Assembly (NCBI GenBank): GCA_905178155.1
Contig: CAJINV010000013.1
Coordinates: 2,848,158-2,912,157, forward strand
Length of the DNA: 64,000 nt
Source: Amoebophrya sp. A120
Lineage: Eukaryota > Protista > Dinoflagellata
Direction of reading: 5' to 3'
Part shown: positions 1 to 50,562 of the stretch, piece after piece
Layout of the letters: each line of letters starts with the position of its first letter
Position numbering within the stretch: the first letter of the stretch is position 1
Made by a program: the position numbers and the translations under genes
Notes under the pieces: generated by a model
Databases searched by the model: none
The model's input: the letters and a program-made list of their open reading frames with translations, nothing else
Told to the model about the DNA's origin: nothing

Positions 1-3000
1 TAGTTTCCGCTGCGCTTCGGGTGGTTCGCGGATTTTCGGAGCTCGTCGTTTTCCGCTTCGAGGTAAAACAGTTTGTCGACCAGTTCCTGCAGCTTCGCGC
101 CCGAAGAAACGTCGACAGAACCGGTACTACTCCCCTTCGGACCTTTTTTGGTCGTTTCCAACGCTCTTAAATCTTCGGATTGTCTCTTGAACAGAATCTC
201 CAGCTTTTCCTTTTCGATCTTCAGTTTTGGGTAATCTTCGTTCTGCTTTTTCGTTAGCTCGAGCTGCTTCGCGAGAAGTTCGTTCTCTTTGCTCGTTTTG
301 TCCAGTTTCTGGAAGAATTCCGTCGCCGTCACCGAATTCGGCTCGCCGTCGACGTTGACCTTTACCATGGCGCCAACCTCTTGCAGTCTCTTCTCCAACT
401 TGATATTCACGGCGGACAGTTCGGTGATATCATGAAGAAAAATCCCCCCCATATCAAAACGGAAATCTGTGATGCAGATTTGTGGTCACCAATCAGCGTT
501 GTCATGCTAGAAGGGAAAAGATACGGACTGTAGTGCTGGGCGGCGTGGGAAGGCCTTGCATCTTCAGCATGACAGGAGGCAGCTGGAGGTGCGAAACAGC
601 ATGACAAATTGCTTGCAAACGAGGCCACAACTGCGGCTCTTGGTCTTCTAGCAATACAAGGCGATTTGTGTACTCGAATACAGCATCACAAGTTTCGTGC
701 TCGATATGGGGAGGGGGGATTTTTCCTTTTGATAGGCGAGTCGGGTGTGAAATCGCTGCTTTTCGTTCGCCCGGTCCTCCTCCGAGTCGAAGAGCTTCTG
801 CTTCAGCTCCTCGCCGTCTGTGATCACGGACAGTTTCGCCTGCCGCTCGGCGGACGCTTCTGTCAGAGGTGGTTTTTGGTCTGGTTGTTCTTTGGTGTCA
901 CTTTTTCCTGTCGTGGAACTCGAGGCTTTTTGTTCCTCTGCTGGAGTGGAGGAAGAGCTCTTCTCGTCTCTCTTCCCTTGTTCAACATCCACAGCTGCGG
1001 GAGTTGTGGAGGCGTCGGTCTTCTTCTCCCCGACGACGACCTCGGCTGGGTTAATGTCCGTGAACGCTCTCGGGTCTTCCCGCAATAAGTTCGAACTCAT
1101 CACCAAGTCGTGCTTTGTTTTCGCCGTGTAGGTTGCCTCGTCGTCGATGTACTTCGATAAGTATTTCAAACCGTCCTCCAGTTTATCCAGAAATACCTCG
1201 TTTTCCTTCTCCTGCTGTTCTTTCTTCTCCTTATCATCGTTCGGTTTTCTATCCCCTCGGCTGTTCTGCATCGTGGTCAAATCTGTCAACAGATTCTTCT
1301 GGAACCACTCGATCCTGCTCCGGAACAGCTTGTAGCGTTCCGCGTCCCGCTCGAAGATCCGCACGTCGTTCGCCAAATTTCCCGCCTTTTCGATATCGAC
1401 CGTGTGTCTATCATTCAGCTTCTCAATGATTTTTTTCAACTCCTTCGCCTCATTCTCCGAAAACTGCATTTTCTGCTGCATCTGCTCGGTCTTGGCATTC
1501 GCCTGGTCCTTCTCCTCCACGGCCGTTTCGATCTCCGCGCAGAGTGTCTTCATCCGCTTTTGGAAGATTTCCGTGCGGTCGGAAAGCTCCATCTCGAAGA
1601 TCTTTGTCGCTTCAGCGAGCTGCTTCTTCACATGTTCAAACTCCTGCACGGACACCTCCTTCTTGTGCGAAGAACTTGGAACGTGGGAGGAGGAAGTAGC
1701 TTTCGTATTTCCAGCAGATTTGCTACCCTTCTCCTTCCCCGCCCCGGCGAGGGCGCTGCTACTCGCCGACGGTGCCACGCTGGCTGCGCCTCCAGAAGTT
1801 GCAGCTGCGCTCAGCGCGAGCAACTCCTTCGCCAGTTCCTCGTTCTTGTGCTCCAAAACCACCACTCGCTCCACCAAATCCCGAACGCCGCGCCCGGCGT
1901 TGAGCGAGTCCACGTTCTGCGCAAAGGTCTTCGAACTGGCAGAGCTGCCGGAAACGGGGAGTTTCAAATATTCCAGGCCGGCGAGCTCCTCCTGCAGCCG
2001 CTTTTTCAAAATTTCGGTTCTGTCCAGATCGGATTTCAGGGCTTTGTTGTCTTTTTCTAACTCCTTCACCTTCGCGATTTCGATCAAATATCCCTTTTTC
2101 TCCTTTTCCAGCTGCTCCAGCTGTTGAATGACCGTCGCTAAAGACTGCTTCTGCTCCCCGTCGATCGTCTGAAACACGTCCATGGCCTTCAGTTTTTCGC
2201 TCAGACTCGCGTTATGGATTGCAAAAGTGTCTGGGTCCGGAAGATTCTAAACTTGTGATGCTGTCTCTGGATTCTAAAAAAATTTGCACTGCATGACCGG
2301 CAACAGAACTCCACCAGTTTGTGCTACCCGGAGAGGGCATTTCTCATGGGGTAGAGGCATCACAAAGGCCTCTAAAAATCTGTCATGCTGGAGCATGCAT
2401 CACCAACATCATGAGTCTTCCAAAATATGCATGACAAACCTGGCAAGCTTCCAGAACCAGACCCAGACATTTTTACATTTGATACGCGTTCGCATTGGAC
2501 AACTTCGTCACCTGTTCGACCGATCTCTGCCACTCGGTGGAGGTATCAAGTACAAAAGTGTCTGGGTCTGGAAGATTCCGGGATTTGTGATGCATATTTT
2601 CTACGATCCATGACGCACGTAATGCATGATCTAGCATCACAGATCTTTAGAGGGCTTCCTGATGCCTAGTCCGCATGAGAAATGCCCTCTCCGCGTAACA
2701 AAAACTGAACTCCTGTTGCTGGTCACGCAATACAGATTTTTTTGGAATCCAAAAACAGCATGACAAGTTGCAATCTTCCAGACCCAGACATTTTTGCAAT
2801 CCATAGGAGGCTTTGGTGTACAAATCTTCCATCTGCTGCAGCTTCTTCGCGAGCAACTATTACAGTGAAAAATACCCCCACCCCCACAGTTGCAAGAATT
2901 TGTGATGCGAAGTTTCCAAATGAAAACTTTTTGTCATGCATAAAGGGAGTATGAATCTTTCTGATGCAGAGTCCAGGCGTGTATCGCATCGCCAGCATGA

Positions 3001-6000
3001 TGAGCGCCGCTCTTGCTGGGGTCTTTTGCAATACAAATTTTCGCTATTCACGGTTACAAACCTGCGATGCTGATAGATGGAAGACGGCGAATGTTTCATT
3101 TGGAAAGGTTTGCAGTACAAATGCTCCCAAGTTCGGGGGTGGGGGCATTTTTCATTGTAATAGCAACTCCACTTCGTTCACATTCGCTGTCGACGTTGCG
3201 GCTTGCGCCGTCGCGGACAGCTGCGGAGCTGCGCCAGCAGAAGTCAGCCCGGCCGTCAGCGAGTTCGTCGGGAGGTAATTATCGGGGGAATCGGGCGAAC
3301 TCGCGTTCGCGGCGGAGTGGCTGCCCTCGAAGTTCGCGGGGTTCAGACCGCCCGGGTTGCTCTGGATCATGTTCACGATCTGCTGATCCTGCTCCCGCAC
3401 CTGCACTCTTAGTCTGTTATTCTCCGCCGACAGGCTGGTCACCGTCTGTTGCAGTGCCGCGACGGACTCCGTCGTGGGCTGCGCAGCGGTGGTGGTGGCA
3501 CTAACTGTCGGTGTGCTTGATGTCGAAGAGTCGATCACGATCGGGGGAGCTGCAGCAGCTGCTGTTACCCCAGCAGCAGCAGTAATACCTCCCGCGCCGC
3601 TTACTAGCGACGACACGAGACTACTGCTGGCCGCTGCCGCGGAAGAAGTAGCTCCTGCAGTACTTGCCCGTCCGCCCAGCAGGTTCTTCTGCGTTTCCGT
3701 GTCCAGAATGGCTTGCAACGCCGCCACCAGCTGGTCAAAAATCGTTTTCGGCACCGTCGTCGCCGCGCCAACAGCACCAACCTGCCCCGGCCGGTTGTAC
3801 ATGGACGACCCGACCATCCCCGCACCGACCACCCCGCCCGGCCGAATCATGCTGGTCGGACTCCCCGGACGACCGATCATCGAGGACTGCTGCGCGCGAA
3901 CCGCGACCGTAGCCTTGTCCTGCGATTCCTTCAGCGCTTTTGTGATTGAGGAGTGAAACTGATCCAGCCGCTGCTTGGTGTCCGCGATGGTTTTCTCCAA
4001 GTCGGTGATTTTCCTTCCAGATTCGGCAATGGAGCTATCCCCACGCGTGTTCGCGCGGTTCAGGGAGAGGTTTTCGTCTTCGAGTTTGCTCATTTTCAAC
4101 CGGAGTTCCTTTATCGCAAGAAAAAAGTGCTACAGTTACACACTGTGTTGCAAGACCGGCAACACAGATAACCTGTCTCATGCAGGAAATGCTTGGGAGC
4201 CTCGTTTCCTTCCTGTTTAGCCTTATGATTTTCGCATTACAAGTTTTCCCTCCCACACGAAGAAAATTTGTGATGCAGAAACTCCAACAAATGTGTAACT
4301 GTAACACTTTTTTCTCGTGATATCCTTGATCAACTCTTCATTGCTGTATCTTTCCTCCTCCAACTTCTTGATAATTTCCGCGGTTTGCGACTGCTGCGCG
4401 GAGGATGCTGTCGCAGTGGTTGCACCTGCCGCGGCAGACGACGTAGAAGCCGCAGGAGGCGTAGAAGTTGTAGGAGCACCACCTCCCTCAGCTACGTCAA
4501 CCGCCAGCATTCCCTGCTCCTTCGCGTCTTGACACAAGCGGCGGAGCTCCCTGAGCAAAGTTGCGGTCTCGAAGGAGGCGATGGAGACCTGGCCGTCGTA
4601 TTTGGACTTCAGTTTGTCCAATTTCAGCAGCAACTCCCGGGTGTTCGTACCCTTCTGGACCAACGCTGCGTTTTTCTCCACCAAATTCGCAATGGACTGG
4701 GACACCTTCTGCTGCTTCTGGCTCGCCTCCGCCTCGGCCAGATCGGTTTTCGACGCGTTGCGGTCTGGACTAGAGGACGCTGCGATGTCGTCGGGGTTGG
4801 TTGTTTCTGGGAGAAACTGTACGGTTGCGAGATGCTTCCGGATTTGAAACAAAACCCTGTTCACGTTCGCGTCGTCCAACTTCGCCTCCTTCTGTTGGTT
4901 CTCGATCAAGTCCCTCATGTCCTTCTGAAACTGCAACAATTTCCCGTTATTGTTTGTCACAACCGCATACGCCTCGCGGAACTGCTTCACCTTCTCCCGA
5001 AGCGACTGCAGCTCCTTCGCAGAAAGCGTAGTCGCGGCTTCGGCTGTTTGTCCCGCGGGTGGTGCTGTGCTGGGGTCCTTCACAGCCACATTCCCGGTGA
5101 CGATTTGATCCCGCAGGCGGGTCAACTCCTGCTGCTCCTCGCGGAGTCTGCGGTCGAGCGTGGAAATTTGGTCCTGGGCGACGGTCAGTTGCGTTCGGAG
5201 GGTGGTGACCTCGGTCGTGGAAGAAGAACTTGAAGAAGCTCCTGCTGTCCCGAGCACTCCGGATGTTGAGCTTGTCGCCCGCAGCCGCAGCTGCTGATTC
5301 TCCACCTCCAACTGCTGTACTCTGCTGGTCAAAGTTGCGAGTTGCGCACTATTACTAGCACCGGCAGCAGAAGTAGTCGTGCCAACAGCACTTCCACCGC
5401 GCTCCGCCGCTTCTCGGGTCAGTCTTGACTTCGTGACCTCCAGCTCGTAGACCTTTTCCTGTGTTTGTTTCAAGTCGTTTCGCAGCCTCGACTCCTCTTC
5501 GATAGAGAGTCCAGCGCGGGACGGGGACGCACTGCTCAAATCCCGCACTCGTCTCCGCAACGACTCTAATTCAACATTGTCCTGCTCCAACCTCCTTACC
5601 TTCGCCTGCAACGCCGTGAGCTCGTCTAATTGCGATTTCAACCGGTTGTTCTCCTGTTTCACAATCTGCAGCTCCTGATTCGCGGCGGCACTCGCCTGTG
5701 GCGACAGGCCCGATTGGAACGCAGAGCTGGAGGAAGCAGCTCCACCGATTGTCGGAGTAGACATCCCACCTAACGTGGGCGTGCCAAGCGAGGAAGTGAC
5801 GCCGATCTCCTGGGACATCTTCGAGAAGTCTAACGACGTCGCTTTTTTGCTGTTCATGTCCAACTCTTCCAACAACTTCTTGCATTCCTGCTGCAGCGCC
5901 TCCCTCGCGTCCAACGAGCCCATCCCCCGTTGCAGGAGTAAAAAGATCTGCCTGGCCCGCCTCGTCAACTGCTCGTACTCCTCGACCGTTTTTTCGCATC

Positions 6001-9000
6001 GCTGCTTCAACTTCCCGACCTGCAGGCGCAGCAGGTCGTTCTTCTGAGCCAGGCCGAAGTTGGAATTGGATGGGGAAGTGCCTCCTGGCTGTTGATTCAA
6101 CTTCACGATCAAATCGTCCCTCTCTCTCCGGATCCTAGTCACCGTGTCCTCCAAGTCGCGAATTCTGACAGCACTTTGATCACCGCTCAGTGGCTGCGCG
6201 CTAGGCACAGCGCTGCTGGAAGATGAAGCAGCAGTGGCACCACCAGCACTCCCACCGCGTTCGATCTTGCGCTTCAATCGCGCGTTTTCATTTTCCAAAT
6301 CCTCGAGCCGCTGCCGCATGCCCGTAATCGTAGTGGGCGAGCCGATAGTACCTGCCGAGCCGCCACTTATGCCAATTCCACCCCCGATTACGTTTGGCGA
6401 GCTCGTCATCCCGCCCGGCCGTTTTTTCACTTGCTCCAACTCGATTTCCAGGTCGTCGATCCGGTCTAGCAATCTTGCGATTCGCTTATCTTTCTCCACC
6501 ACCTCGTCGATTTTCCCGGTGACCGCCTTCTTCGCATCCTCCAACAGCGCTTTCAACTTCTGCTCCGAGTCTAACGACTGTCTATTCAGCATGGCGTTCG
6601 ACGCTTCTTTCGATTTCCCCGCGATCACTTCGTCCTGGAGGGTCAATAGCCTTCGTTTCATGTCTTCCAGCCGATCTTCGTACGTCCGATTCGTCTTCTT
6701 CAGCTGCCGGATCTCGTCCTCCATCTTGGACTCGTCTTTCTTCGCGAGCAATTTATCTGCTTCTTGCTCGATCTGCTCGGTTTTCCACTTCTCGAGCATC
6801 TGTTTCAGGTTCTTTATCTCGTTGTTCTTTTCCTTCAGCTGCTTGCGGTATCAAATGCAAACATGTCTGGGTCTGGAACTTGTCATGCTGTTTTTGGATT
6901 CTAGAAAAATAAAACTAGCATTGCACAAGCAGCAAGAGGGGTCCAGTTTGTGCTACGCAGACAGGGCATCTGTCATGCGGAAGGCGCATCAGGAAGCTCT
7001 CTAAAAGTCTCTGATGCTAGGTCATGCATTACAGGCTTTATGGGTCATGGAAAATCTGCAAGACAAGTCTTACATCCTTCTAGACCCAGACATTTTTGCA
7101 TTTGATATGCGGCAAATCTGCACAATCCGCGCCAGATTGCTCGCCTCGTAATTCTTCTCCGACTGCTCCAGCTTCTGGTCCATGGCTTTCCGCTCGTGCT
7201 GGTACAGTTCCTGCTCGCGGTGGAGCTGCGCGATTTTCTCCTTCAACGTGTACAATTCGCTGTCCTTGCTCTGGATCGCGGACTGGAGTTTCTCGTGCTC
7301 GGTTTGGTGCTTTTCCAGCAGATTTCCATGTTCCTTGATCACCTTCAACGCCGTGTCGCTGCTGTTTTGCTCCCCTCTGCCAGATCCCAGAGGACCGCTG
7401 TTGTTTGTAGTTCCGCCACCAATCCGCGCGCTGCTCGCACCAGACGACTGCTCTCGCAAATTCCGCACGTTCAGTTGGGTTTCCAACGCGATCAAATTCG
7501 TTTTCAACTCGTTCACCTCCTGTTGGTGGTACCCTCGGTCCTCCTTGATTTTGATCTGCAGTTCCTGTATCTGTTTCTCCCGGGCGGAAAGTTGTTCCTC
7601 TTTTTGATCAATCACGGATTGCAGCAAGTTCACGCTCTGCTTCGCCGCTTCCCCGACCTTTTTCACCTCCTCGTCCTGTTCCCGCAACAGTTCCTGCCTT
7701 AACTTCTGCGCCGCGTCATCCCCCAAGTTTGCCTGCAGTAATTTCAGCTGAATCTCGGAATTTTTCAGTTTTCGCGAAACCGTGTCCAGCTGGAGGTTGA
7801 ACTTCTCCTCCTGGTGTTTCAGATCCTCCTTCAAAGACTCGTTCTCCTGCGATTTCTTCTGCAGCTTGTCCAAAATGTCCTCGATGCCCGACTGCAGCGA
7901 CCACTTCTGCCGCATGGAACTGCGGAGGTTCTGCGAGTCGGACACGTTCTGCCTCGACGAGAGATTGCCTGCTGGTGCTTGTTCCGTAGACTTGTTCAAC
8001 AGTTGCATGGCGGCAGGTCTGTATTGTAAGTTAAGCAGCATCATAATGAGGTTTTTAATAGAAAATCTTGTCATGCGAAAACAACGATGAACCATCAAAA
8101 TTTGTCATGCGAAAAAACCCTACAAATTTTTACCTGTTGTCCTGTATTGCCATCATCACTTCCTGTCCTTCCCGCAATTTCAGCCGCCATCTCTCCTCTT
8201 CCTGCTGCATCTTGACCTCAAAGTGCGCGTTCTGCTTCTGTAATTGCTCGATCGTGTGTTCCTTGGCGTCGTTCGATCGGTACAACTGATCCAGCTGCTC
8301 GGCCAACGAGTCCGCCTTCCGTTGGTTGCGCAACGCCTGGAGTCGTGCGTCGGACAGCTTCGTCGCTAATTGCATCACTTTTCTCCTAGACTCCACCAAC
8401 TCCGCCGTGTGGTCTATGAAACCAGCTCCTGTAGAAGTACTCGGCTGCTGTTGCTGTGCGCCGGACACAGTACTAGAGCCATCCGCCAATGCCGCTGGTT
8501 TGATGCTGCTATCCCCCTTCGCGTTCACACCGGCAAACAGGTCGTTCTTCAAGTCCGACAACAGTTCCTGTCCCTGCCGCGCTTGCTCCTTTGCCTCGTC
8601 GAGTTGGGTCAAAAGTACAGACTTGGATTTTCGAACCGTTTTCAAATCTTCCTCCAACTCGGATTTCCTCTTCGAAATTTCCTCCACTTGGTTCGTCAAA
8701 GAGTAGATTTTTTCCACGGAGAAACTGTTTTTCGCCGACAAGTCTTGCCGCAACTTGTCGTTTTCCAGCAGCGTTTCCGCCAGTTTTTCTCTTAATTCGC
8801 TCAATTCCACCTCCTTTTTCGCCTTCGTTTCTTCAAAATTACTCGTCAGAGTTAATTCCTCTTTCCTCACCTCCTTCAATTCGTTCGAAACGATCGACAG
8901 TTCCCGGTTCGCAAAGCTTCGTTCCCACTGCGCTAGCAGCAGTTTGTACTGCGTCTTCCCCACGTTCAACTCTAAATCATCAGACGCCTGCAACATCCGG

Positions 9001-12000
9001 ATCGTCTCCTGCAAGTGCTTCTTCTCCTCCTGCCGTCGTTTGATCACCCGCTCCAAGTTCTCCGACTGCTTTGCGCACACCTGCAGAATCCCGTTCTTCT
9101 GCGTCAGTTGGATCTTGAGCTGCTCGTTTTCGAACAAAACGGACTCGGCGAGCTTCAATTTCGGCTCGACCTCCTGCAAGGTGATGGTGCCCGCGAGCTT
9201 GATCTCCGTGTTCGCCCGTAACTGTCGTTCTTCGTGCAGCTCCTTCTCCAGCCGGAGGGTCAAATTTTCCAAATCCTGCACCTGCTTCGTCAGCTCCTTT
9301 TGTGTGTTGATTTTGGACTTCAGCTCCATCTCCAGAACCCCCGACCTGCGGTTCGCCGCTGCCATGCGCCACTCCGCAATCTGCGCAGCCATCTGCGTGT
9401 TGGAGGCCTGGGGTTTGGTGTCGAACCTGGACGAGGCGCTGTATTGTTGCTGGACTACTACTTGCTGCGGGATACTGTTGTTCTCTTCTGGGTAAAAGAG
9501 AAATTGCTGCGGCATCTGGTTCTGCCCAGAACCTGAACCAATACCAGAAGACGCGTCATAAGAACTACCTTGTTGCATGTTAGAAACGACCGTTCCTGGC
9601 ATTGGCGGGTTGAACTCGTCGTCTTCGGTTAGCAGCATCCTGCTGGCGTTCTGGAACTGCTTTTTGCACTTGGTCACAAAGTCCTGGTAGTTTACCGTGG
9701 CGATGTGCAGCAGCTTCTGCCGCACCGGTAAGTGGTCGTACTGCTGTTGCTGCATCACTTGCTGCGCGCTCGTTTCGTCGTAGCCGCACCAAGCTGCCAC
9801 CTTCTGCAGCTCTTCCGCATTCGCCAAGGCCTCGTGCGTGTTTTCCTCGAAAAACGCCGGGAGGCCGAAGGTTTTGAACACTTGGAAGATGTCCCCGAGC
9901 TTTACGAATTGACTGTTGTTCTGGAACACATGGAGCATCTTGAAGAAATTCTGCTCCTGCTGCGGCGGCACGCGCTGTTTCACCGCCGCCCAAAAGAGGT
10001 CCTCGCCGGACTTTTTCTGCAGGCCAAACAGGCGAAGCTTCGAAACAAAGGCCAGGAGGGAAACCTGTTCATAGTGGGGTTCGACCCTATCACTTCAATG
10101 TATGCCAATGCCTTCATTCGATGTGGCACAGTCGTGACAGACGAAGAAGCTTCATTTTGCTGCAGCTGCTACATTCGAGAAGATAAAACACAAGAAAAAA
10201 TCTTTGGCGAAATCACCATCCTCACCTCGTTGTAAAACTTCTAGAAATGTTCATTGAATAACGCAAGAAATAAGCCAAATCCTAAAGTACCTTTTTCCCC
10301 GGCCAGGACACCGCCGCATTTTGTCCTCCTCCGCCCGCGTTCATGTTCACATCGGTTTCCCCGACGAACCCAGTACTAGTTGAGGCGCCAGTCCCCAGCT
10401 GGTTCGCGGTCATGGTCAAGTGCCCCAGATCGGCGTTCGACCCCCCGCAGGCTTTCGCGATGGTCTCCATGTCCTCGGGTGTCAACTCGAGCTGCCCGCC
10501 GATCGACGCGATGGAAGACTGCAGAAAGTCGTAGATCGCGGACAACGTCAAGAACCCGTCGTGGTCGGAGTTCAAAACCTTCAATTTGTCCTCCACTTTC
10601 TTCCACGGGGGAGAAATTTCACTACTGGTTTCGTCCGCAAACATGCCCTCCGTGTACCACTCGCCGTAGTGGGAAAATTTTCGTTGCAGCTGCTTCACGA
10701 GAGACCGGAACAAAAAGCATTCCTGCTTGAAGTTCCCGTCGAAGGACTCTAACTTGTTCCGCAGCGTCGTCAACTCGAAGTCCGCCTCGATTTGAATCTG
10801 CTCCAAATCCGCGCACTTTTCCTCCAGCGCGACGAGCTTTCGCAGTTTGTCTTCCCGCTCCGCGTTCAACACGTACAGGTCGGATTGTCGGCGGAGCAAA
10901 TCCATCTCGCGCTGGAGCAAGGTGGAGAGCTGCTTGTTCACCTTTTCGTACTCCTGCATCGGCACCATTTCCTGGATTTTTTTACTCGCGATAGACAAGC
11001 TGGATTCCGCCCGCTGCTTCCACAGAGAGAGTTGCTGCACTTTTTGCTTCAAGTAGTCCTCCGCCTCGGAGGCTTGCAGTTCAATCGTGTCTAAGATCTG
11101 CTTCGTCGCTTATCCTGAGTAAAAACGTCCCCACCCCCTAGCCAAGATGGGGGCTTTACTACACAAATCCGCAAGATGTGGGCGCTGCGCATGACAAATT
11201 GCTACTCGTAGCTTAGTCGTGTTCAGCCTGCTCAGTCGCATCACAAATCGCTCGCCTTGTCCTGATTCCAGCATGACAAAGAACTCATCTCAGATAGCAC
11301 TCAGATATGACCCTCATGGGGCCGCGCATGAGATACATCTCAAGTTAAAGTTTGTTGAATGTGCATGGCAACTATGGCGTGGGGACGTTTCGACTTGGGA
11401 TATCGCCTTGTAATCTTGGTCCAATGCCTGGTACTTCCGCGCCATCTTCGACTCGTTTTCCTCCAAGATCGCGGTCCGTTGCATCAACTTCACGAGCTTT
11501 TCCCGGTCCGATTCGGCTTGCGAGGAGTTTCCTCCGGTCGTGGAGGAGGAGTATTACAGGGAAAAATACCCCCGCCCCGGAATTTGCAAACGTTTCTCAT
11601 GCAAAGTTTCCAAATGAAAGCCTTTTGTCTTGCATGAAAGGATCATGAGCGTTTCTAATCCAGAATCTAGGAGCGCGAGCGCAAGATATCTGCTGCGTAA
11701 CAGATCCGCCTGCTGTTGGGCTCCTTTGCAACATAAATTTGAGCGATTCAGCATAGAAAATTTGTGATGCTGATACAAGCAAGACGGGCAATATCTCCAT
11801 TGGAAAGGTTTGCAATACAAATGCTGCCAAGTGCGGGGGTGGGGGCATTTTTCATTGTAATAAGGAGAGCGTGGCCTTCAAGGATTTCACCTGCTGCTCC
11901 AGCGCGTTCGCGAGACTGACCTTCTCCGTCGCGTCCTTCTCGAGTTTGTCTTTTTCCTCCATCCACAAAGTCTTCTGCTTGAAAAAGTCGTTGTAAACCG

Positions 12001-20567: not shown

Positions 20568-21770
20568 CGCCCAGCAAAATAAAGCTGCTGCGATTTATAT
20601 TATGCTTGCGAGCTCCTGTCACGAAACGCAGGAGGTGAAAAAGTGGATGAACTCGCTTTCACGACGACTCGAAGGCGTCAGCACCAGTCGAGGAGGACCT
20701 CGACAAGCAGGACCTCGACAAGCAGGACCTCGACCGCGCCGCGACGCCAGCGGAGGTCTCGGGCCGACATATTAGTATGTATTTGTTCAACAAGAACTTC
20801 TTCAACAATCGACATGAGTTCTCTTTTTTTGTGCTTCATTACGTCGATGAAATCAAAGCACCTAGAAGAAGAAGTGTAGTGTCAGTTTCAGCCTCGTATA
20901 CTTAATTTTCGTTCCTCTTCGTCCACAACATGGAGCCTTTTCCCTTCCTCCACGACATGGAGTTTGAGCTCGTCGCCCGGAACTGTAGTCTCTCCCTCGC
21001 CCCTCTAGCGGTAGTGAAGAGCTGCAGTTTTTGAACAAGCAAGCAAGTGGCTGACCAAATTTTTGAAGCGAAATTCACCTAGTTTGCGCAGTATTTTTTG
21101 AAAACACACCACTCCGGCTCCACCTCGATACAATTGATTCACATTTGCGCAGATTTTCGTGGTCCAAATGAACAAAAGAAGACTCGTTTTCCGCTGTTTT
21201 TACTTTTATGCCGCTCGTCCGCCATATGCAACTGAACAGAGGTAGAAGTGCTATCAAACCGAAGGAAAAAAATTTTTACAGCTCGGTGCGATATTCAGAT
21301 TTGCACTTTTCAGATGAATGTAGGTATGCGTAAACTTATTATATGAAAACAAATTCTTCTGAGGCGAGTGCCACGATCGCTGCTGGATGGCATCCGCATC
21401 AGCTTAAGATTGATAAAAAAAGAACAACAATAACCATGTGAACATCGGAGTAAGTAGTAATGTAGATGTATGTAAGAACTGAAAATATTAAGTAAGTAAT
21501 AGTAGATTTATGTACGGCGGCTGTTCTTCCCGAGTAGCGCTAGAACGTGAGTAGAAGGCAAAACCTTCACCCGGAAATTCACGTTTCCACGCGTACAATC
21601 AAGCAAACAAACATGCCAACAAGAAAAAAAAACGAGTGCCAAAACCATTACAACCAGGCCTAGCATTTATAATCTTCTTAGCACCAGTTTCATCCTAGGC
21701 AATCGCGTCAAAAATGCCGTGCATCAAGCATCTTCCTGCGCCCGTGCTTTGCTTCCTCCTTCACTGCTCC

Positions 21771-40679: not shown

Positions 40680-41849
40680 TTTTGTTTTTGAAAATGGTGA
40701 GTTGAAAACAAATTGACGTCCTCCACCGCGGGTCTTATGGGAGTAGAGGTGGTATGGGTATCTGTCGGCGCCGCATCTCAAATAAACATTCCTTAAAAGT
40801 AGAAGTGCAGCTGTAGTGTATTTCATAGGACCACGAAAAACAGCTCTATCGCTAAAAGCCAAAAATTGTACGCTTCCATCTGGTTTACGAGGCAGAGAAA
40901 CAGAAACATGAACAGAAAGCGCAGCTGCATGGCGCCATATCTATCTTTGTTGAAGTGGAAGCGAAGACTGAGCAGAAGTTGTAGTATGTGAAATTAGCTC
41001 TGGAAGACTACACACGACAGGAAGGAGGTCCTGAAAAAACGATTGTACGGCTCTCGACATCAAACGATCAAGGATTGGCTTTCGTGATGAATCGCCCTTG
41101 GCTTCTTATATCCAGGCTCTGATGTTTGATTTCACCCATTCGGACCCAGCTTCTCAATGTATCGAAGTAATATAGGCACATATTAGCGGATGCAAAGGAC
41201 AAAGAATGCTTTCTTTCAACGATTCTAGAAATAACGACTTGCGCTTGTTGTTTGCCTCGGACGATAAGCCACGGCGCCTTTTCGTGAGGTACTAAAAATG
41301 AAGTATTTTGGGCTTCCGAGTAGACACGCGGACAGAACACATCGGAGTCTTCATCGTAGGCGGTTGTGCACCAGAAGATTCCTACTTCGAATCTCTGCAG
41401 TCTACTCCGACGAATGCGTTTTGATGTGACGTTCGTTGAAATTTCAGCAAAAGTAGCTTTTCATGTCAACTACATGTTGGTTCGCGACGAGATCGCGACG
41501 AGGTCGTGGCTTCCCAGCAGGAACTACTTGTCTTCCCCATTTCACTTTTAGCTGCGAAAGTCGGCTGCCTTTGCGAAGTTCACGTGTTCTTTTTACCGTA
41601 TGATTTTTTGACCGTTAAAACTCAAAAAATTTCATCATAACTTCACAAAAAAACCACCTCGACATTCGCGTTTTTCTCGTTCGGTCCTTCCCAAAACCAG
41701 AAAACGAAAAAATTGCGGAACAGAAGAGGTATCTGTAACGAGGACTTGTGCACCCGGACAGTTCCTGAAAGTAATCCGGAGGCCACGACCCGACGTCGAC
41801 GACAATGGGGATAGAGTATGATAAACTGGCCCAGGCCCACAACACCCGG

Positions 41850-44800
41850 TTACAACTGCTCTCCCCCACCAGTCGCTTTTTCCCATTCCTCGGCACAGAC
41901 CTTGCGCAGATCCCGCGCCATTTGGTCCATTACCGGGTAAGACGCACGACACACCACCCGTCCGGCCAGGGAGGACTTGCCGACGCTGCCGCGCGGGTTC
42001 AAGTGGGACACGAGCAGCACGTCGGTGAGCGGCTCCGCGTCCGCGGACGTCGCGACAGGCGTCTGATAGTATAGTTTTGCCTTTGCGCGACAAGTTCTCA
42101 TATAAGCAAGTACAACATCTTCGACGTGATGATTTTGGCTCCACGCCTCGTAGCTCCTACACATTTTGATTTTCTACCTGGAAAAAAAATCACAATTTAC
42201 TCAAGAACGCAAAAAAAAAATGATCACTTATCAAACCGAATATAGTAGTACCGCAAACCAGCAGCTGCTGCTCAAATTTCCGAGCACGTGCTGCTTCACC
42301 GGGTCTGAGCTTGCCGGCTCGACCGACTTCGACAAAACCGCGAAGGTCCCGTCGTCGATTTCAAAGGGCCGGGTCGCGCACACGAAGATCCGGCTGGAGA
42401 CGAGAGAAAATCCGGCGTACACACCGGTTTTCACGAGCACAGGCCCGTTGGATTCCGAGTAGTGTTCTTCCAGTACCTGCGAGCCGATGCAGCTCCGGTC
42501 GATTTTCGGGTACAAAACCGGGTCCGCGAGCACCTTCTGGATGAACCGTGCGGGGTAGGGAAGCCGGATGTACACCAGCATCGACCGCCAAATCTTGTTG
42601 CACGGGTGCTCCACCGAGGAAATCACGATGTCGGTCAGGGCGTCAGAGTTGCTGGAAGAGTTATTGTTCTTTGTCTTGTTCGACGTCGTCCCACCTTTAT
42701 TTTTCATCGTCGACATGGGGATGGCGACCTGCCGGCCTAAATGAAACGTGGTCCGAAACAATTCCGCGATCAGTGAGTGGATTTGCATCGAGCTCGGCGA
42801 GATTTGCGCGTTCAAATCCAGAAACTGCTTTGCTCGCGACATCCAGGCTGATTTGATCACCCGGTCACCGGCTACATTCGTCCCTGTTGATGCGCCGCTC
42901 TCGTTCTCGAAGGCCAGCATGCGCCACGCACGCCAGATCTGCATGTTCAGCCGCATCACTGGCATGAAGGGCTCGCGCTCGCAGATCTTCGCCCGCGGAA
43001 CTTCGTGCTCCACTTGTTCCACGAGGAACGGGCTGGCGTCCTGCAAAATTTCCTCCAGGTTGAGAATTTTCTGACCACCCGGAGAAGATCTACTTTGGCT
43101 CGTCGAAGTAGCTGAATTATTTTTACAACCTTGGTTCATCATCCTGTGGTCCCGACCCGTTGTACTTCTAGATGCATTCGGTGAGCAAGTTGCTCCTCCT
43201 TCTTGCGGACTAGAAGATGTTGACACAACCGTCGTGGTTGTTTTGTTCAGCAATTTCACAACATTGTTCCCCGCACCACCGCCATTCGTCGAGTTGTTGC
43301 TGCTAATGTTATTTCCGTTAAACGAACACCGCGAAACCCGGTCGGAAAGTGCGTGCGGGGAGTAGAAGCTCGCGTCGGTCCAGCGGTCGCAGTTCACGAT
43401 CTTGTCCGGTGTGTCGTCGGTAGTTTGCTGCCCCCGCTCAAAGTTGCGTAGTTGTGCATCATCGGGGTCCAGGCTGTGGGAATGGCTGTTGTCCTTGCTG
43501 GTAGCGCGGCTGGTCGCCGCGCCGCTTGTGTGCTTGCTCGAAGCGTGGGCGGAAGTCGCTGTTGATGACGAGGAACCATTCATGACTCCAGTGTGGTAAG
43601 GTGAAGAAGTCTCTTGTGGTGGTTTGGAACATAAACTTTTGCCGCCGTACTTGTGAAGAGACGACGTGTGGCTATCGATATGCTCCTGCAGCGTAGTAGT
43701 TGTCCGACTACTGGACCGACTTTCATCTGGCACAACAAACTTTTGGAAATTATCGGTTTGGTACTGTTGGTGCCCCTGCGCCGCCTGCCCTGCTCTTTCT
43801 CTTTGAAGATGTTGACTGGCATTTTGACTTTTAGTACTGTTACCCCCTGCTGCAGACGTGCCAGATCTTGATCGGTGGACAAAACTGCCTGGCTCCCTTG
43901 CAGGAGCTGGCCACCCGTTCACCGAGGCGCTGCTCCAGTAGCTGCTGGCAGAGGTGGTGCTTTTGTGCACCAGCTTCTTATGATGATTGTTCACCCCCGG
44001 CTTCAGAGGCGTTCCTCGAGACAGCATATTTTGATCCTCGTCGGTACCACTGATCGGCTCGAAGCTCGCGACTTCGGCAGGCAGAATCGAGTGGATCTCG
44101 CCCTTGGCCTATCCGGTGTAAAACCGTGTTCACCTGCGCCCCAGAGTTAAGATCGCGGCTTTGCTACACAAATCAATAAGGCTTGGCTGTCCGGCATGAC
44201 AAGTTTAGAACTTCTCTACCGCAGTCGCCGGCAAGACAAATTTACGGCTCTAGTGCAGGCACATCGCAAATGTAGCTCCTCGTCCTGATTTGCTATAGAG
44301 CGTGACACAGTCCCAGACAGCAATCGAAAATATCCCTCCTGTGGCTTGCAGGGCAAGACAATCTGGTTACGCCACTTTCTTGCATGACAACTCTAGGGCG
44401 GGGACGAAGTTACAGAGGATATGATCCTGCTCAACCGGTACAGTGCGAGCCGGGACGCGATTTCGATCTGCCGCGATGACGTGAGGCAAATCGCGACCAG
44501 CCCCCAAAAAACCGTAAACGACGCATCGGAGGTAACCAAAATCACGATGGCCGCGGTATGGCACGCTCAGGCGGTACAATCTCAACTGTTGCAATGAAGT
44601 GAGTCTGAAGCTTGCTTTGCATGAAAAGCAGTAGGAACATGAACTACACGCACAGCCTCTTCCGCTTTTCGCAATACAAATCATGTCGCCGGATTTAGGT
44701 GCGTTCTGGAGATCCGGAACTTGCCATGTGCAATCCTGTGCAAATAGGCTAGATCCTGCACTTTTTGCATTACAGCTTTCCGTCTCTATTGTAACACTTG

Positions 44801-47548
44801 AGATCATTGTAACACCTGAGCAGGTGATACGCGGTGAAAACCAACGTGACCGCCTGTGGAAGCGGGATGCGGAGGAGCACCACGTAGAGCAGCAGCACAA
44901 ACGGCGTCACGAGCGGGTTCACGAATGCGCCGACGAGGAGATCTAATAACATGATACCCACCGCGACGTATTGCCGAACGAAAATCCATCGCGTGTAGGA
45001 GGAATGAGAGGAAAAGGTTGAGGCTGTATCGACGTCTCCGGAACAAGTTGTGCCGGGGGGTTTGGTAGTGCGGTGGTCGTTGCTATTCTTATCGTTGGTG
45101 GTCCTTCTTTTCTTCAAAGCTGACGCCTGCCTATTACGACTGCCGCTGTTGTCATCCTTGTTCACCTCGTTCGAGCGCATCAGACTCGCGTCAATCCCCA
45201 ACAGCGTGCCAAAAAACAGCACCCAGCACACGTGCCACCCGATGAAGTCGCTGGACTTGAGGCCACGCGCACGGGCGTATTCATACCTGATTAGAGTAAT
45301 GGGTTTTACTTTTTAAATATATCTTTGACATCTCATCTATTCTGTCGTAGCACACGGATGTGCTTCGCTCAAGTAATGTTGCGCTTGAGTGGTTCCGGCG
45401 CTTCGGTAGTGCTGGTGAGAGGCTTCTGAGCGCCTCCCTTAAGTAGTGCTTGGCACAAGTGGTGCCCTGCTTAAGTAGTGCAACGCTTAAGTGCTTCGCT
45501 TAAGTAGTACTGCGCTTATGTGCTTCCTTTAAGCGCGTCCCTCACGCGTTTCCCTTAAGCGTTTCGCTTAAGTGTGCTGCGCTTAAGCGTTTCGCTTAAG
45601 CGTTTCGCTTAAGCGTTTCGCTTAAGCGTTTCGCTTAAGCGTTTCGCGTAAGCGTTTCGCTTAAGCGTATTGCTTAAGCGTTTCGCTTCAGCGTTTCGCT
45701 TAAGTGCTTCACTGAAGCGTTTCGCAAGCGATCCCCGTAAGTGCCTCGCTTAAATGTTTCGCTTAAGTGGCGCGCTTCTAAAGTGCTGTGCTTAAGTGTT
45801 TCGCTTAAGTGCTCGCTTGCGTGGTGCCCCGTTTACATGTGCGGGCTTAAGTCTTTCGCCTAAGTAGTGCTGCGCTTAAGTGCTTCGCTTAAGTAGTGCC
45901 TTGCTTGGGTGCTACACTTAAACAATGCTGCGCTTAAGGCTTTCGCTTAAGTAGTGCTTCGGTTCTTGAGTGGTGCCGCGCTTGAGTGTTTGAGTGGTGC
46001 CCCGACTCAGGCTGAAGTGTTTCGCATGAGTGGCCCCCCGCTTAAGTGTTTCGCTTAGGTAGTGCTGCGTCTTTTGCTTCGGCGGCGCCCTGATTAGGTG
46101 CTGCGCTTAAGTAGTGCTGCGCACTACTTAAAGTAGTGCTGCGCTTAAGTAGTGCTGCGCTTAAGTAGTGCTGCGCTTAAGTAGTGCTGCGCTTAAGTAG
46201 TGCTGCACTTAAGTAGTGCTGCGCTTAAGTAGTGCTGCACTTAAGTAGTGCTGCGCTTAAGCAGTGCTGCGCTTAAGTAGTGCTGCGCTTAAGTAGTGCT
46301 GCGCTTAAGTAGTGCTGCTCTTAAGTAGTGCTGCACTTAAGTAGTGCTGCGCTTAAGCAGTGCTGCGCTTAAGTAGTGCTGCGCTTAAGTAGTGCTGCGC
46401 CCAAGTAACACCCCGCCTGAGTGCTTCGCCTACGCAGTGCTGCGCTCTTAAGCGCTTCAGTAGTGCTGCGCTCTTAAGCGCCTCAGTAGTACTGCGCTTC
46501 TTCTTGTCTTACGGCATTTTGCATCAAAAAAGGGTGCGTACTTACTAGAAAGTTTTTGACTGAAGAGTATGTTGAGTCCCTCGCGTACTTACCTCATGTC
46601 CAACTTCTCCAAGCTGGTGGTGTCGCCCCCGACCGCCAGCGCTAGCCACAGCACGATGTAGGCCGTGACGAGCGGCAGCAGACACAGTAACCAAAATTTC
46701 TGCTGTTCCCAGTAGTACTCAAAAAACTTCGCCTCGAGGTTCTGGTCGTAGAACGATAAGGTCCACGGCCGCATGACGGAGTTGCTGCTGGTGCAGGTGC
46801 CAGACGCGGTGTTGTTCGTCAACACCTGCGTGGTAAATTGCTGCACCATATTGCTCGCCGCCTTGCGGTTGCACAGCTTCTCGCTGCAAAAATTTTCTTC
46901 CTCGTCCTCCTTTTCTACCAACCTCTGTTTGATGCTGTTCTGGTACTGGGTACTATCGTTCATTGGCGTGCTACTTGTATAAAAATTCTCGCCGTCGTTG
47001 TAGTCTTGACTTTCATGATATTCGTAGTTCCCCATCGTGCCACCTCCATATGATCTCGAGGACTCGGGCTCAGCTTGGAATTGCTGGTGCGGGCGGAGAC
47101 CACGGGGGGCTTTTTTGTGCTGCTGTTGACTCTGCATGTAGAAGTCGCTACCTCCCGAAGTTGCAGGTTGCTGGTGACCCCCTCCTGCATCGTGCGCCGC
47201 GGCGCTGGTATTTGAAGCACTGGAATTCGTGGCCTTGGTCGAGCTCACGCGAGACGAAGACTTCGAGGAGGTTTTGTGCACGTCACTCGTTGAGACGGTG
47301 GACGAACCCTGTTGGCCAAATGTTGTGCCAGCTGCGCGGTCTGCAAACTGCTCTCCCTGGCGATCTTCCGATAAACCCGAATGATGTGGTGGATCTGGAT
47401 GGTCTATGCTGATGGCGATGGAGTCAAAGTCTGAATTGTTACGATTGCGGCCCCCGCCTGGCGTAGTAGTTCCCGTTGACACTGCAATCAGGTCGGTACG
47501 AACGCTGCTCGGCACGCCCACCGCGTCACGCAGCTCGTCGCGATTCAT
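41850..47548 (-). CDS. Multi-pass membrane protein with nucleotide-cyclase-like anchor and C-terminal START lipid-binding domain
   Basis: GT-AG introns 45287-46592 and 42063-42251 and introner 44110-44421 join in frame; 'WTLSFYDQNLEAKF', 'HSILPAEVA'; START-like 'VSSRIFVCATR...FAVLSKSVE...LVSHLNPRG'; frame across 44422-44816 unresolved. Confidence 0.6.
44110..44421. mobile_element. Degenerate introner, family 4
   Basis: Ends TAT...ATA; TSD TGGCC/TGATC; removal gives SRIKGEIHSILP. Confidence 0.75.
44587..44814. mobile_element. Possible degenerate introner, family 3-like
   Basis: TIR TGTTGCAATGA/TCATTGTAACA; no TSD. Confidence 0.45.
45360..46500. repeat. Intronic satellite of 13-bp (CGCTTAAGCGTTT) and 16-bp (GCGCTTAAGTAGTGCT) units
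   Basis: Near-perfect runs at ~45580-45700 and ~46130-46400 with degenerate flanks. Confidence 0.95.
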
Positions 47549-49051
47549 GTTCTTTTCTTGTTTACCAATGTTATTTTCTCAAAAGTCTCATTTCTGGAGT
47601 TTTTTCCTTAAGTATCACTGTAGTGCGTTTTACAAAAAATACGTCTTCTCAATGCTGTATTTTACATCTCTCATAATATTATCCCTCATCAATATCGACA
47701 ACAAGGCTATCAACAATACTATCAAACAAGGGCGTCTGTGTCGTACAAGGCGAAAACTGCGAGAATCTCGGCGTGCCTAGATTAAGACTCTCTCGACGAC
47801 CACGCTATTAGGTATGAGTTTACTTTTCAAAAATAATGGGTTTAGGTAGTACTATTCACGATTCATATTCTTCGACTCATCGACTATCATAATTGTTCAA
47901 AAAACATGCTTTACAATTCGACGAACTAGAGAAAAACCAAGAAGAGGCTCCACACACGGTATATTGACGTCTACAAGGTTTCGAGAATCGTGTGACACAA
48001 AAGTGCAAGAACATAGCAGCACCGCTACCGATAAAAATTTGCAGCTTTTCGAGAATAGACTAAACTAATCTCTGAAGCACGGCGTTAAGATATACCCCAA
48101 CGTACGGACCCACCTCGCGCAATTGATAGAAAATGAAAAAGAATCTAGTCCCCCGCCCGCCCTAAAATAGAGATGTAGTTTTTGGCGACAGTCGCACAGT
48201 AACGAAACATGCTTACGCGCTAGATCTACCTCAGCAGATGCTCTTCTCATTGTCTCGAAACGAAAATTTAGAACGCTCGTTGAAAAGAGTGGGATACGGC
48301 AGACGATAGTAAGAAAAAAATCTCCAAAGGGCCTAAGAAATAATGTTCTGCGATAGCAGGGGAACAGCGGGAGTAGCTGTTTCAGACTCAACGTATCAAC
48401 GACCTGAACCTCGTATTATCGCTCTGTGCCCGCTCTCGTCTTCCACCTCGTGCGATAAAAACCACGCTCGTCCTACTCTGGTCAAAATATCATTTCTGTC
48501 GTAGTAAACTTCCAGACTTCATCATCGCTTCAACAGCAGAGGACGGGCTTGGATAGTTTAACTCCAACCACTCTCGATCACTACTTGAGTCTATTTCTCG
48601 GAAACGATTTAGTCGCCGTTCCGAAAAAAACCGATCAGTGCGTGGTCGTTGAGAAAGAATATTTTTGTATTGCGAAAACGGAACATCACCTGGTATTTGC
48701 AGTACGCGTGCTAACCCTCATCCCTATCTATGCGAAGTCCCACATTCACCGCTTATACTTTCTTTTTCTTTCCCCCCGCACCCGCGCTGCACAGCGATTG
48801 GCGGTTTGAAGATCAATAGTGCTTTCTTGGGTTGATTCGCGAGCATCTTTAGATTTGGGGCCAGAAAACGAATCACTGGCACTGCACAAGGTGCTCCTTC
48901 GACGATGTCTTCGCTAGCTTTGGTGCGGGCGGCCCGCTCGTGCTGCACAGTCGCGAGAACGGTCACAGCGAGATGGTAGTCTTGATTGAAACTGCTACAC
49001 AGAGTTGTATGCATTCCAGACGCCATTTTAGAGTGGAATTTTATCACTTGC

Positions 49052-50562
49052 TCACATCTTCCCTTTGAGCGGCCCTGACATGACTTCACCGGGTTCCGGT
49101 CCCGCAACGTATTTCACCGAAACAGAATTGACGCAGTGTCTTTCGCTATCCGCGCCCATTTCGCCGTAAAATACATGTCCTAAGTGCCCGTCGCACCGCT
49201 TGCAAAGAATTTCCGTGCGGACCATACCTGTGGTTTTCGGTTCAATTTCTGCTCAAAAATAATTTCGACACACGGAGGAACGATCAAAAAGTCGCATGCT
49301 GGCACTGCTGAAAGAATATGATTTTTCCATTTTTTTACATCTTTACATTTTCTCACTGCAACTGCAAGTGCAAAATTTCTCGCGCGCTGTAGAGACGTGA
49401 AGCAGCATCGTAAGTACCGTGTGACCGGTCCTCGATATAGGCAATGTGGGAGCCGTTTGCCGCCTTGCTGTGGTAGCAGTCCTTGTAGGCTGGCCACCCG
49501 CACCCGCTGTTGAATTTGGCCTGGTAGCTGTAGAGCGGAAACCCGCAGGCGCGGCAGCAGTAGTAGCCCTCCTTGGGATAATGCTTGTCGTACTCCCCAG
49601 TGCCCGCCCGCTCTATCCTGAGTAAAAACGTACCCACGCCAGAGTTGTAATGCAGATTTGCAAAGACAGGAAGACTTGTAATGCGCATCCCCATGAGAGC
49701 CATTTCCAATCGTGTTTTGGAATTTGTGATGCTGTGAACAGGATGAGTAGCTGGATTTGTGATGCGGCTGCACTTGCTAACCTGCACTACACTGCAGAGC
49801 GCAACTTGTCATGCGTGACTCACAAAACTCCTAGGTCTGTGTTGCAAAATCCCCATCCTGACTCTGGTGTGGGTACGTTTTTACTCAGGATACGCTCCGT
49901 GCCCTTGTTTCGCAACACGTCGTACTCCTTCGCGTTCAATATCGTCTTCTATAACAGTGCACAACTCCCCCTCCCCCTCATTTGTATAGCATGAACGGCA
50001 AAAATACAAGCATTAGCAAGACTGCAGGTTTTGCATGACAAATTTGCACTGGAGTGTAGTGCTATTTGGGCCGCTACCAGAACTTGTCATGCGAAAAGTG
50101 CCAAGAGGCACCAAAGGGAGGACTTGGTATTTTGCATGACAAATGAGGGCGAGGGGGAGTTGTGCACTGTCATATCTTCCACTCGCCCTCCGATTTCACC
50201 ACTTTTTCCATCTTGCCACCACTTGTTGCCTGTCCCAGCTGAACTGTGTTTTGATCGCTTGTTTCTTCTCCCGTGCTGCTGAAAAAGCTCCGTCGAACGA
50301 CCGAGGCACTCTGCGGCTGGTGACCAACGTCGAAAAACAGCAAGGCGGAGGTAGTTCCGGCGCCTTCGAGCAGCGCCAGGGTCGTGTTGCCGCGACGGGG
50401 GAAGTTGCTTCGTTTAGTACCCGGAAAGGGTTTCGGCTGAATAAAAGTTCTACTGGGCGTCTGTCGTGCTCTGCTTGTCGTGCTGTCTTTAGATATGTTA
50501 TTGGTCTGGACAAAAGCGGCGCGGGAGGTTTGGCGAAGGTGGTGCCGCAGGACGGAGGACAT
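49052..50562 (-). CDS. msrB: Peptide-methionine (R)-S-oxide reductase MsrB, with a possible N-terminal targeting extension
   Basis: [75 protein letters not shown]; two introners and GT-AG intron 49228-49417. Confidence 0.95.
49614..49892. mobile_element. Introner, family 4
   Basis: 32-bp TIR with 1 mismatch; TSD CGCTC/CGCTC; interrupts the conserved GTERA motif. Confidence 0.95.
49950..50174. mobile_element. Introner, family 8 (TIR TATAACAGTGCACAACTCCCCCTC)
   Basis: TSD TCTTC/TCTTC; removal gives EWKTILN. Confidence 0.95.

Follow-up and report, generated by a model that had tools for sequence, protein, structure and literature searches.

Analysis of a 64,000-nt stretch of the Amoebophrya sp. 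A120 genome (contig CAJINV010000013.1, positions 2,848,158 to 2,912,157 of the forward strand; hereafter the window) showed the presence of 44 inverted-repeat elements of 157–376 bp, delimited within 428–50174 by unbiased and anchored scans. Coding exons of five minus-strand genes hold 43 of them, and removal of the element plus 5 nt restores the reading frame in 43 of 43 cases. With about even confidence, the elements are regarded here as terminal inverted repeat (TIR) transposons mobilised by one integrase-like DDE family and removed from RNA by a relaxed spliceosome of the U2 type.

The phenomenon is real and has largely been published already for A120, where non-canonical introns with RNA-seq support and undefined borders occur alongside GT-AG introns (PMC7789003). 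The present analysis adds a uniform 5-bp target site duplication (TSD), a cut register in the interior of this duplication, a constraint on U and A of the sense strand and a phased sub-terminal motif. These features were not found in the literature searched, where the figures of PMC7789003 (logos of Fig. 3 and Figs S19–S25) and supplement file 14 of PMC12130899 may overlap with them. The recognition and mobility of border-less Amoebophrya introns, which number in the tens of thousands, were left open in earlier papers; with a fixed register and two invariant bases, intron recognition becomes a matter of yes/no tests, and the TSD, end architecture and motif shared by the families indicate where the enzyme is to be sought.

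Elements in the coding exons of five genes

The pre-mRNA is written below as exon-D1..D5-TAT...ATA-D1..D5-exon, and mismatches are given as the positions at which the two TSD copies differ; register 4 denotes cuts after D4. Host genes and elements of the window are as follows.

1..20570, minus strand: CEP290-like host gene, incomplete at the window edge; read as 4164 aa, with 26 introners and five GT-AG introns
26615..28770, minus strand: host gene without assigned function; 6 introners; extends into an assembly gap
35012..40830, minus strand: DNA polymerase kappa (Pol kappa) host gene; 7 introners
41638..47560, minus strand: membrane protein host gene (P0135); 2 introners
49180..50220, minus strand: MsrB host gene; 2 introners and one GT-AG intron
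428..734, minus: introner, family E, CEP290-like gene; TSD mismatch at D3
2213..2484, minus: introner, family A, CEP290-like gene
2544..2805, minus: introner, family A, CEP290-like gene
2858..3162, minus: introner, family H, CEP290-like gene
4112..4322, minus: introner, family C, CEP290-like gene
6849..7107, minus: introner, family A, CEP290-like gene
11111..11402, minus: introner, family D, CEP290-like gene; TSD mismatch at D1; crossed by a DNA contig
11552..11862, minus: introner, family H, CEP290-like gene
12009..12260, minus: introner, family A, CEP290-like gene
12332..12592, minus: introner, family A, CEP290-like gene
14261..14417, minus: introner, single copy in the set, CEP290-like gene; TSD mismatch at D4 (silent)
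14493..14868, minus: decayed introner, family D, CEP290-like gene; sense 5′ end reads ACT in place of TAT, contrary to the U rule
14918..15124, minus: introner, family C, CEP290-like gene; orthologues align gap-free over the junction
15181..15505, minus: introner, family E, CEP290-like gene
15746..15953, minus: introner, family I, CEP290-like gene; TSD mismatch at D2
16002..16281, minus: introner, family D, CEP290-like gene
16386..16697, minus: introner, family A, CEP290-like gene; sense 5′ end TAC; TSD mismatch at D1 and D2
16777..17029, minus: introner, family A, CEP290-like gene; TSD mismatch at D5 (cut before D5 gives Asp, after D5 Glu)
17088..17344, minus: introner, family A, CEP290-like gene
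17450..17734, minus: introner, family A, CEP290-like gene
17872..18195, minus: introner, family E, CEP290-like gene
18236..18444, minus: introner, family C, CEP290-like gene; GT-AG in register 4
18468..18838, minus: introner, single, CEP290-like gene; TSD mismatch at D3 and D4
18893..19076, minus: introner, single, CEP290-like gene
19184..19436, minus: introner, family A, CEP290-like gene
19513..19875, minus: decayed introner, 26th of the CEP290-like gene; TSD mismatch at D1 and D5
26770..27098, minus: introner, family B, 26615..28770 gene; TSD mismatch at D5
27164..27467, minus: introner, family G, 26615..28770 gene; TSD mismatch at D2
27563..27841, minus: introner, family D, 26615..28770 gene
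27876..28124, minus: introner, family A, 26615..28770 gene; TSD mismatch at 4 of 5 bases, frame rule kept; best junction for fixing the register
28171..28347, minus: introner, family B, 26615..28770 gene; TSD mismatch at D1 and D5
28362..28585, minus: introner, single, 26615..28770 gene; GT-AG in register 4, dependent on a mismatched TSD base
32818..33092, strand not assigned: family A element, in no clear open reading frame (ORF)
35434..35731, minus: introner, family E, Pol kappa gene; junction peptide present in P0001
36135..36308, minus: introner, family I, Pol kappa gene
36395..36727, minus: introner, single, Pol kappa gene
36793..37073, minus: introner, family A, Pol kappa gene; downstream D5 retained (Met), cut before D5
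37268..37562, minus: introner, family A, Pol kappa gene; upstream D2 retained (Arg), cut after D2
38722..39040, minus: introner, family E, Pol kappa gene; sense 3′ end reads GTA, contrary to the A rule
39107..39427, minus: introner, family E, Pol kappa gene
44110..44421, minus: introner, family D, membrane protein gene (P0135); upstream D2 and D3 retained (Ile), cut after D3
44557..44829, minus: introner, single, membrane protein gene (P0135)
49614..49892, minus: introner, family D, MsrB gene (SelR domain)
49950..50174, minus: introner, family F, MsrB gene

An earlier note on this DNA had described about 43 intron-like elements in six genes. The number was confirmed, while the genes are reduced to five, since the element 32818–33092 lies in no clear ORF. 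A lone left-end-like stretch, for which no partner was found in the window, is present at 30918.

Left ends on the plus strand are TAT in 38 of the 44 elements, CAT in 3, TGT in 2 and TAC in 1; right ends are ATA in 41 and AGT, GTA and ACA in one each. TGT and ACA ends represent rare decay rather than a second end type. The flanking 5-mers match exactly in 27 elements and differ by one mismatch in 10, by two in 6 and by four in 1, and exact flanking repeats of 3, 4, 6, 7, 8 or 9 nt were found in none of the 44. As a chance control, the combination of TAT..ATA, an exact 5-bp direct repeat (DR) and a TIR was searched for, with 23 matches in the window versus none in 19 of 20 shuffled sequences and one in the remaining shuffle. 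Sixteen whole-sequence families cover the 44 copies, and their ends have in common TAT[C/G], an A-tract at positions 11–15 and a sub-terminal motif; the proposal of at least eight families with unrelated TIRs is therefore valid for the number of families, the ends being related. The elements are short, bear TIRs and a TSD of fixed length, occur as many dispersed copies and contain no ORF, like non-autonomous TIR DNA transposons of the MITE (miniature inverted-repeat transposable element) type. A terminal hairpin is predicted: the probability of the TIR stem exceeds 0.5 for 36 of 43 elements, and the median fold z is −5.6.

ORFs of 2152, 525 and 694 aa (25 elements of the CEP290-like gene), 1291 aa (seven of Pol kappa), 828 aa (two elements) and 233 aa (two of MsrB) are obtained after removal of the elements plus 5 nt, and a single frame reads through all six elements of the 26.7–28.6 kb gene. 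Restoration of the frame, previously stated for 26 CEP290-like, 7 Pol kappa and 2 MsrB cases, thus holds for all exonic elements. Removal of the element with 3, 4, 6 or 7 nt breaks the window ORFs; the frame test by itself is blind to the difference between 2, 5 and 8 nt. The exact junction peptide expected for 5 nt is present at 9 of 9 junctions in the database proteins P0001 and P0135, which are products of transcript-guided annotation; two exon queries are 100% identical to these proteins, both named Amoebophrya sp. A120. At several CEP290 junctions the alignment with orthologues is gap-free. The database search found no match for the protein of the 26.6–28.8 kb gene, and a same-strain CEP290-like protein was absent among 14 matches. 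Removal from RNA is supported indirectly by the annotated proteins and the reading frames, and by published RNA evidence.

An independent set of 127 metagenome loci (578 kb, 81 of at least 1.5 kb), belonging to a related genome, was fetched by TIR pattern. The loci share no exon with the window, and the best full-length element matches are 66–96% identical. With no repeat required, TAT-starting TIR pairs in the loci have an exact 5-bp repeat in 167 of 241 cases, a 4-bp repeat in 1 and a 6-bp repeat in 0. With end profiles whose training set had required a repeat with at most two mismatches, 447 elements were called, 205 of which belong to one family; the repeat is exactly 5 bp in 339 and has at most one mismatch in 407, with exact repeats of 4 bp in 1 and of 6 bp in 0. 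The 5-bp duplication was found in 11 of 12 end families. Accordingly, the tabulation of TSD length proposed in the earlier note gives a peak at 5 bp in the loci of the related genome, and the TAT...ATA ends with a 5-bp TSD are confirmed in both the window and the loci. Where both flanks of a loci element have a clear frame on the same strand, the spacer equals 5 modulo 3 in 60 of 60 cases, 145 unclear elements and 11 with discordant strands being set aside.

As previously described, canonical GT-AG introns are present in the same genes. The CEP290-like gene has five and the MsrB gene one, and the donors of the local ones start with GUA. GT-AG in register was detected in 2 of 43 window elements and, in register 4, in 11 of 410 loci elements, in agreement with the initial observation that no consistent GT-AG exists. 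When up to 15 nt around each end are considered, 24 of 43 elements have some GT..AG pair that keeps the frame, a count without chance control, and 19 have no such pair; together with the exact junctions, matched in 9 of 9 cases, this led to the rejection of cryptic GT-AG sites, the possibility that the earlier note had set against its own proposal, as a general route.

Among the contigs listed, those of the DNA-type run X5 extend across entire elements with a depth like that of the exons, therefore the elements are not assembly artefacts. Rare events aside, the same contigs stand against excision of the elements from DNA before transcription, as for the TA-bounded internal eliminated sequences (IESs) of ciliates. 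TA-containing ends and scar-free removal do resemble IES excision, but the constraint on end bases and the retained half of the TSD, considered below, follow the direction of transcription, and elimination at the DNA level is very improbable.

Position of the cut and bases constrained on the sense strand

Mismatched TSD copies reveal which base is kept in the product. At 37268, P0001 has the upstream D2 (Arg; R in 97 of 109 homologues), which places the cut after D2; at 44110, P0135 has the upstream D2 and D3 (Ile), and the cut lies after D3; at 36793, P0001 has the downstream D5 (Met; Val, the residue that the other copy would give, in 0 of 113 homologues), so that the cut lies before D5. Taken together, the three annotated junctions place the cut after D3 or D4, inside the duplication. 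The mRNA keeps a hybrid duplication of upstream bases 1–3 and downstream base 5, and upstream base 4 is probably also kept. Removal of exactly one TSD copy, as first proposed, is thus correct in length, but what remains is a hybrid of both copies. The Arg at 37268 belongs to the sequence VEIRD, named previously as a catalytic motif of Pol kappa; it is conserved, but it is not known to be a catalytic residue.

In the loci, GC-ward changes in the downstream copy of D1–D4 prevail 40 vs 14 (p 0.0005), with 12 vs 2 for D4 alone. Neutral change inside the elements is also GC-ward (0.021 vs 0.013 per site), and since the polarity of D4 matches this direction, register 4 is favoured and taken as the probable position of the cut. 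Several points weigh against it. The register is derived from three annotated junctions and a statistical trend, the GC polarity in the window itself is 7 vs 7, D5 in the loci shows no reversal of polarity (5 vs 8), and Glu, which a cut after D5 would give at 16777, is present there in two orthologues. The D5 polarity and the Glu, as well as two window elements that break the U/A rule described below, would fit RNA-level removal with a cut at the element boundary (after D5) or in a floating register, in which case the invariant U would be +1 and the A −8. Such a cut is improbable, however, as the downstream D5 is retained at 36793, where Met is conserved, and a cut after D5 would lead to a stop at L068:1164 if the frame there is right.

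Two further sources were left out of the choice of register. The TM2-like junction L012:1087, where the consensus favours a cut after D3, was not counted, Pfam having given no confirmation of the 24-aa piece. The NT- bias of published A120 splice classes (Table S4; in one family, GT, CT, AT and TT in 6681 of 9716) fits register 4 but was not used, because 3′ AN is equally inflated (6598 of 9716), as aligner sliding towards GT-AG yields.

Loci elements were oriented by the coding score of their flanks with the TSD masked, a procedure that places 41 of 44 window elements on the expected strand; 368 oriented elements with at most two TSD mismatches were analysed (12 of 380 were dropped). On the sense strand, variants number 0 at the 5′ T1, 11 at the 5′ T3, 10 at the 3′ terminal A and 0 at the 3′ inner A (Fisher p 3e-6), and positions 4–26 of these elements show no comparable split between the 5′ and 3′ ends. 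The asymmetry is stable at four orientation thresholds and after collapsing of similar ends. An enzyme acting on DNA would handle both ends equally; the opposite directions of the asymmetry at bases two positions apart cannot be explained by one mutational strand bias. Tolerated partner changes include C-A mismatches, while the wobble-neutral change of A to G at the inner A was never seen, therefore stem pairing, which gives no prediction as to the partner that may vary, does not explain the asymmetry either.

In register 4, the invariant bases are likely U+2 and A−7 of the intron. U+2 and the branch A are the two bases read by the active site of the spliceosome, and the GUA donors of local GT-AG introns match U+2/A+3. 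Under the preferred reading, the 5′ cut would leave a single base ahead of UAU, the 3′ cut would follow AUA at a distance of four bases, and the terminal hairpin would join the intron ends. The invariant U would correspond to the U of GU at +2, and the A next to it to position +3 of the local GUA donors; the inner A at −7 would be the branch point, the 3′ cut would be fixed by distance, and G+1 and the 3′ AG would be dispensable. Such a U2-type spliceosome would be guided by the hairpin and operate without U1; in the part of the A120 report available, nearly all spliceosomal proteins and U2, U4, U5 and U6 were found, and U1 was not (PMC7789003). TAT/ATA is the same at both ends, so either orientation of insertion would provide both signals, and with the loss of one TSD length any exonic insertion would be healed. 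A more general form of this proposal is tentative and somewhat less probable than even: recognition would be reduced to the hairpin, U+2 and a branch A−7 with a ruler, and a single TA-ended integrase-like superfamily, marked by a TGTVATGC site in helical phase, would supply both bases in either orientation, every exonic insertion becoming a scar-free intron whatever the target sequence. If removal by the spliceosome is true, its active site needs little sequence when RNA structure pairs the ends, and the absorption of exonic transposon insertions by this genome at almost no cost is explained.

A number of observations weigh against the spliceosome. In the loci, G+1 is not enriched (101 of 367), the 3′ AG is at chance level (32 of 410), and the orientation of the elements was not seen to favour a more complete branch consensus, a few rows being misaligned at the edges. 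A branch A merely 7 nt before the 3′ cut and within a stem is unusual. Two window elements break the U/A rule: 14493 is without the U, and 38722 is without the inner A, though its junction is present in P0001. None of the runs listed is registered as RNA, and no RNA read crossing a junction was found, X7 and X8 giving 4 and 3 reads and X4 thin exon cover (1–20000). By sequence, a 2-nt shift of both cuts would restore U+2/A−7 at 14493 and 38722, being silent at 38722. The base after the cut shows no bias, and a G enrichment at D5 in the window (20 of 43) was rejected, as it did not replicate in the loci.

The same transposon origin could be combined with removal by a hairpin-guided machinery other than the spliceosome, either an endonuclease with a ligase or a dedicated complex, for which the invariant U and A would be recognition bases; such a machinery has been proposed for the nonconventional introns of euglenids. 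The absence of a preference for G+1 or AG and the strong terminal stem favour it; yet the invariant bases are those that the spliceosome active site reads, and GT-AG introns of the same genes have GUA donors matching U+2/A+3. The offset resembles that of Euglena, with a stem from +4 that ends 5–6 nt before the 3′ cut (PMC12501133), euglenid introns are released as full-length circles (PMC11282704), and U1 was not found in Amoebophrya, as far as the cited part of the genome report extends; on the other hand, 15% of A120 canonical introns have the same layout of inverted repeats (IRs) and DRs, hybrids being common (PMC7789003). The second, non-GT-AG pathway suggested in the earlier note is not the preferred reading here, the invariant U and A fitting a relaxed spliceosome at least as well, and a separate machinery is considered a doubtful, though substantial, alternative.

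Shared end architecture and the mobilising enzyme

The 475 elements of the window and loci form 38 whole-sequence families, 16 of them with window members. TAT[C/G] is present at 99% of ends and the A-tract at positions 11–15 at all. The sub-terminal motif AAAYYTGTVATGC occurs 7.9 times per kb inside elements versus 0.3 outside in the window (27-fold), and 11.5 versus 0.9 in the loci (13-fold). The families that have it number 31 of 38. At either end the motif is directed inward; it never starts before position 30, with position peaks at 33–35 and 41–46 bp from each end. At the family level, motif positions have a period of 10.5–11 bp (Rayleigh z 11, n = 37). At the two ends, the inward motif is present in 200 versus 177 of 368 loci elements.

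A fixed 5-bp stagger together with ends of this kind is typical of ends bound by one transposase family, such as those of the Mu and Tn7 type. At the sequence level, the common TSD length, the end architecture and the phased motif give indirect support to mobilisation by one enzyme or enzyme family. A single family of integrase-like DDE transposases would insert the TAT...ATA elements into exons with a 5-bp target duplication, and TGTVATGC, directed inward at 33–35 or 41–46 bp with a phasing of ~10.5 bp, may be the binding site of the transposase or an accessory protein. The single integrase-type enzyme proposed earlier retains this indirect support, to which a precedent for one family can be added (PMC12130899), while the enzyme itself was not found.

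Against one enzyme family, both the motif and its phasing are post hoc findings, and the RNA hairpin too is lengthened by the motif. No integrase or transposase family was detected in 240 loci ORFs (at least 170 aa) or in the scanned window ORFs, and a TAT...ATA element encoding a DDE/rve integrase, for which a search had been suggested, was found neither in 550 kb of loci nor in the window. No transposase is reported for A120, and mobilisation by transposase is argued against, in the available part of PMC7789003. If the families were moved instead by several enzymes without relation to each other, or through RNA by reverse splicing, with common ends arising from splicing selection alone, this would be in line with this absence of a transposase from the ORFs scanned and from that report, as well as with the assignment of A120 introners to several transposable element classes, one with an 8–9-bp TSD and GG/CC ends (PMC12130899). 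However, splicing requires only the net frame, which repeats of 2 or 8 bp would also keep, and yet 11 of 12 end families have 5 bp; the inward motif at both ends, moreover, has the helical spacing of DNA. Mobilisation by several enzymes or through RNA is therefore considered unlikely.

No TIR match was found in viral contigs. The locus region L024:3328–9524 was rejected as an autonomous element, since the inner repeats paired there belong to two separate short elements. L040:476–2934 has family A ends and an exact 5-bp TSD over ~2.4 kb and is probably a nested insertion; its 415-aa ORF has no Pfam or Atlas match. Longer TAT..ATA elements of 0.7–1.6 kb with an exact TSD and no long ORF are L060:9991–11566, L025:628–1599 and L049:765–1461. 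In the window, 25486–25914 contains short inverted and tandem repeats beside a 700-N gap. The element motif occurs there seven times, and the cluster may represent one end of a collapsed element of greater length. The GT-AG intron 8019–8133 contains two motif copies and could be an old introner turned canonical.

Comparison with known systems and other features of the window

In PMC7789003, the IRs of A120 introners are described as TAT, seven variable bases and at least three A, with DRs of 3–5 nt and a 5-bp example in Fig. S19. The window elements have the same TAT, ~7 nt and A-stretch and a DR within 3–5 nt; the difference is that DR length is variable and mobilisation by transposase is ruled out in that report, whereas the window and loci elements have a 5-bp TSD. 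A120 introner family 38 (5 copies, ~808 bp) is given in PMC12130899 as a TIR element with '5-bp TSD, TA/TA termini', classed as Ginger with homology to the integrase region of Copia/Gypsy, although the text of the same source describes it as without known Ginger termini and TSDs. For the other A120 families among the 58 rows of that source, automated TSD calls are 2–11 or missing.

Ginger1 and Ginger2 have TGTNR termini, which the present elements lack, and a 4-bp TSD, with 5 bp in TDD-4/5, so that the 5 bp found here corresponds to the TDD-4/5 type only (PMC2836005). The end type closest to the present one is not TGT...ACA, as the earlier note had suggested, but the TA..TA of IS3EU/GingerRoot, whose DDE enzymes are integrase-related, as are those of Ginger2/TDD; IS3EU/GingerRoot, however, have a 6-bp TSD, and exact 6-bp repeats were found in 0 of 447 loci elements (PMC10045372).

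Introns of Euglena and the present ones are alike in the proposed MITE-like origin, terminal stem, slidable direct repeats, stem offset and coexistence with GT-AG introns (PMC12501133, PMC11282704). Euglena introns are characterised by CDG at +4, CHG 5–6 nt from the 3′ end, a purine after the cut and circles without a lariat (PMC12501133, PMC11282704), whereas the present elements would have UAU at +2 and, at the other end, 4 nt between AUA and the cut, and do not match this signature. Introns of Fritillaria borealis are likewise derived from transposons with TIRs and TSDs and are removed by an adapted U2 spliceosome; they prefer AG-AC/AG-AT borders, with U1 intact, while the terminal dinucleotides of the present elements are target-derived and free (PMC11282704, PMC13326754).

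In contrast to the otherwise minus-strand gene cluster, a GC-rich block at 53900–59750 contains two plus-strand ORFs of 360 and 504 aa without a Pfam match. A satellite with units of 13 and 16 bp occupies 45400–46500, within a canonical intron of the P0135 gene.

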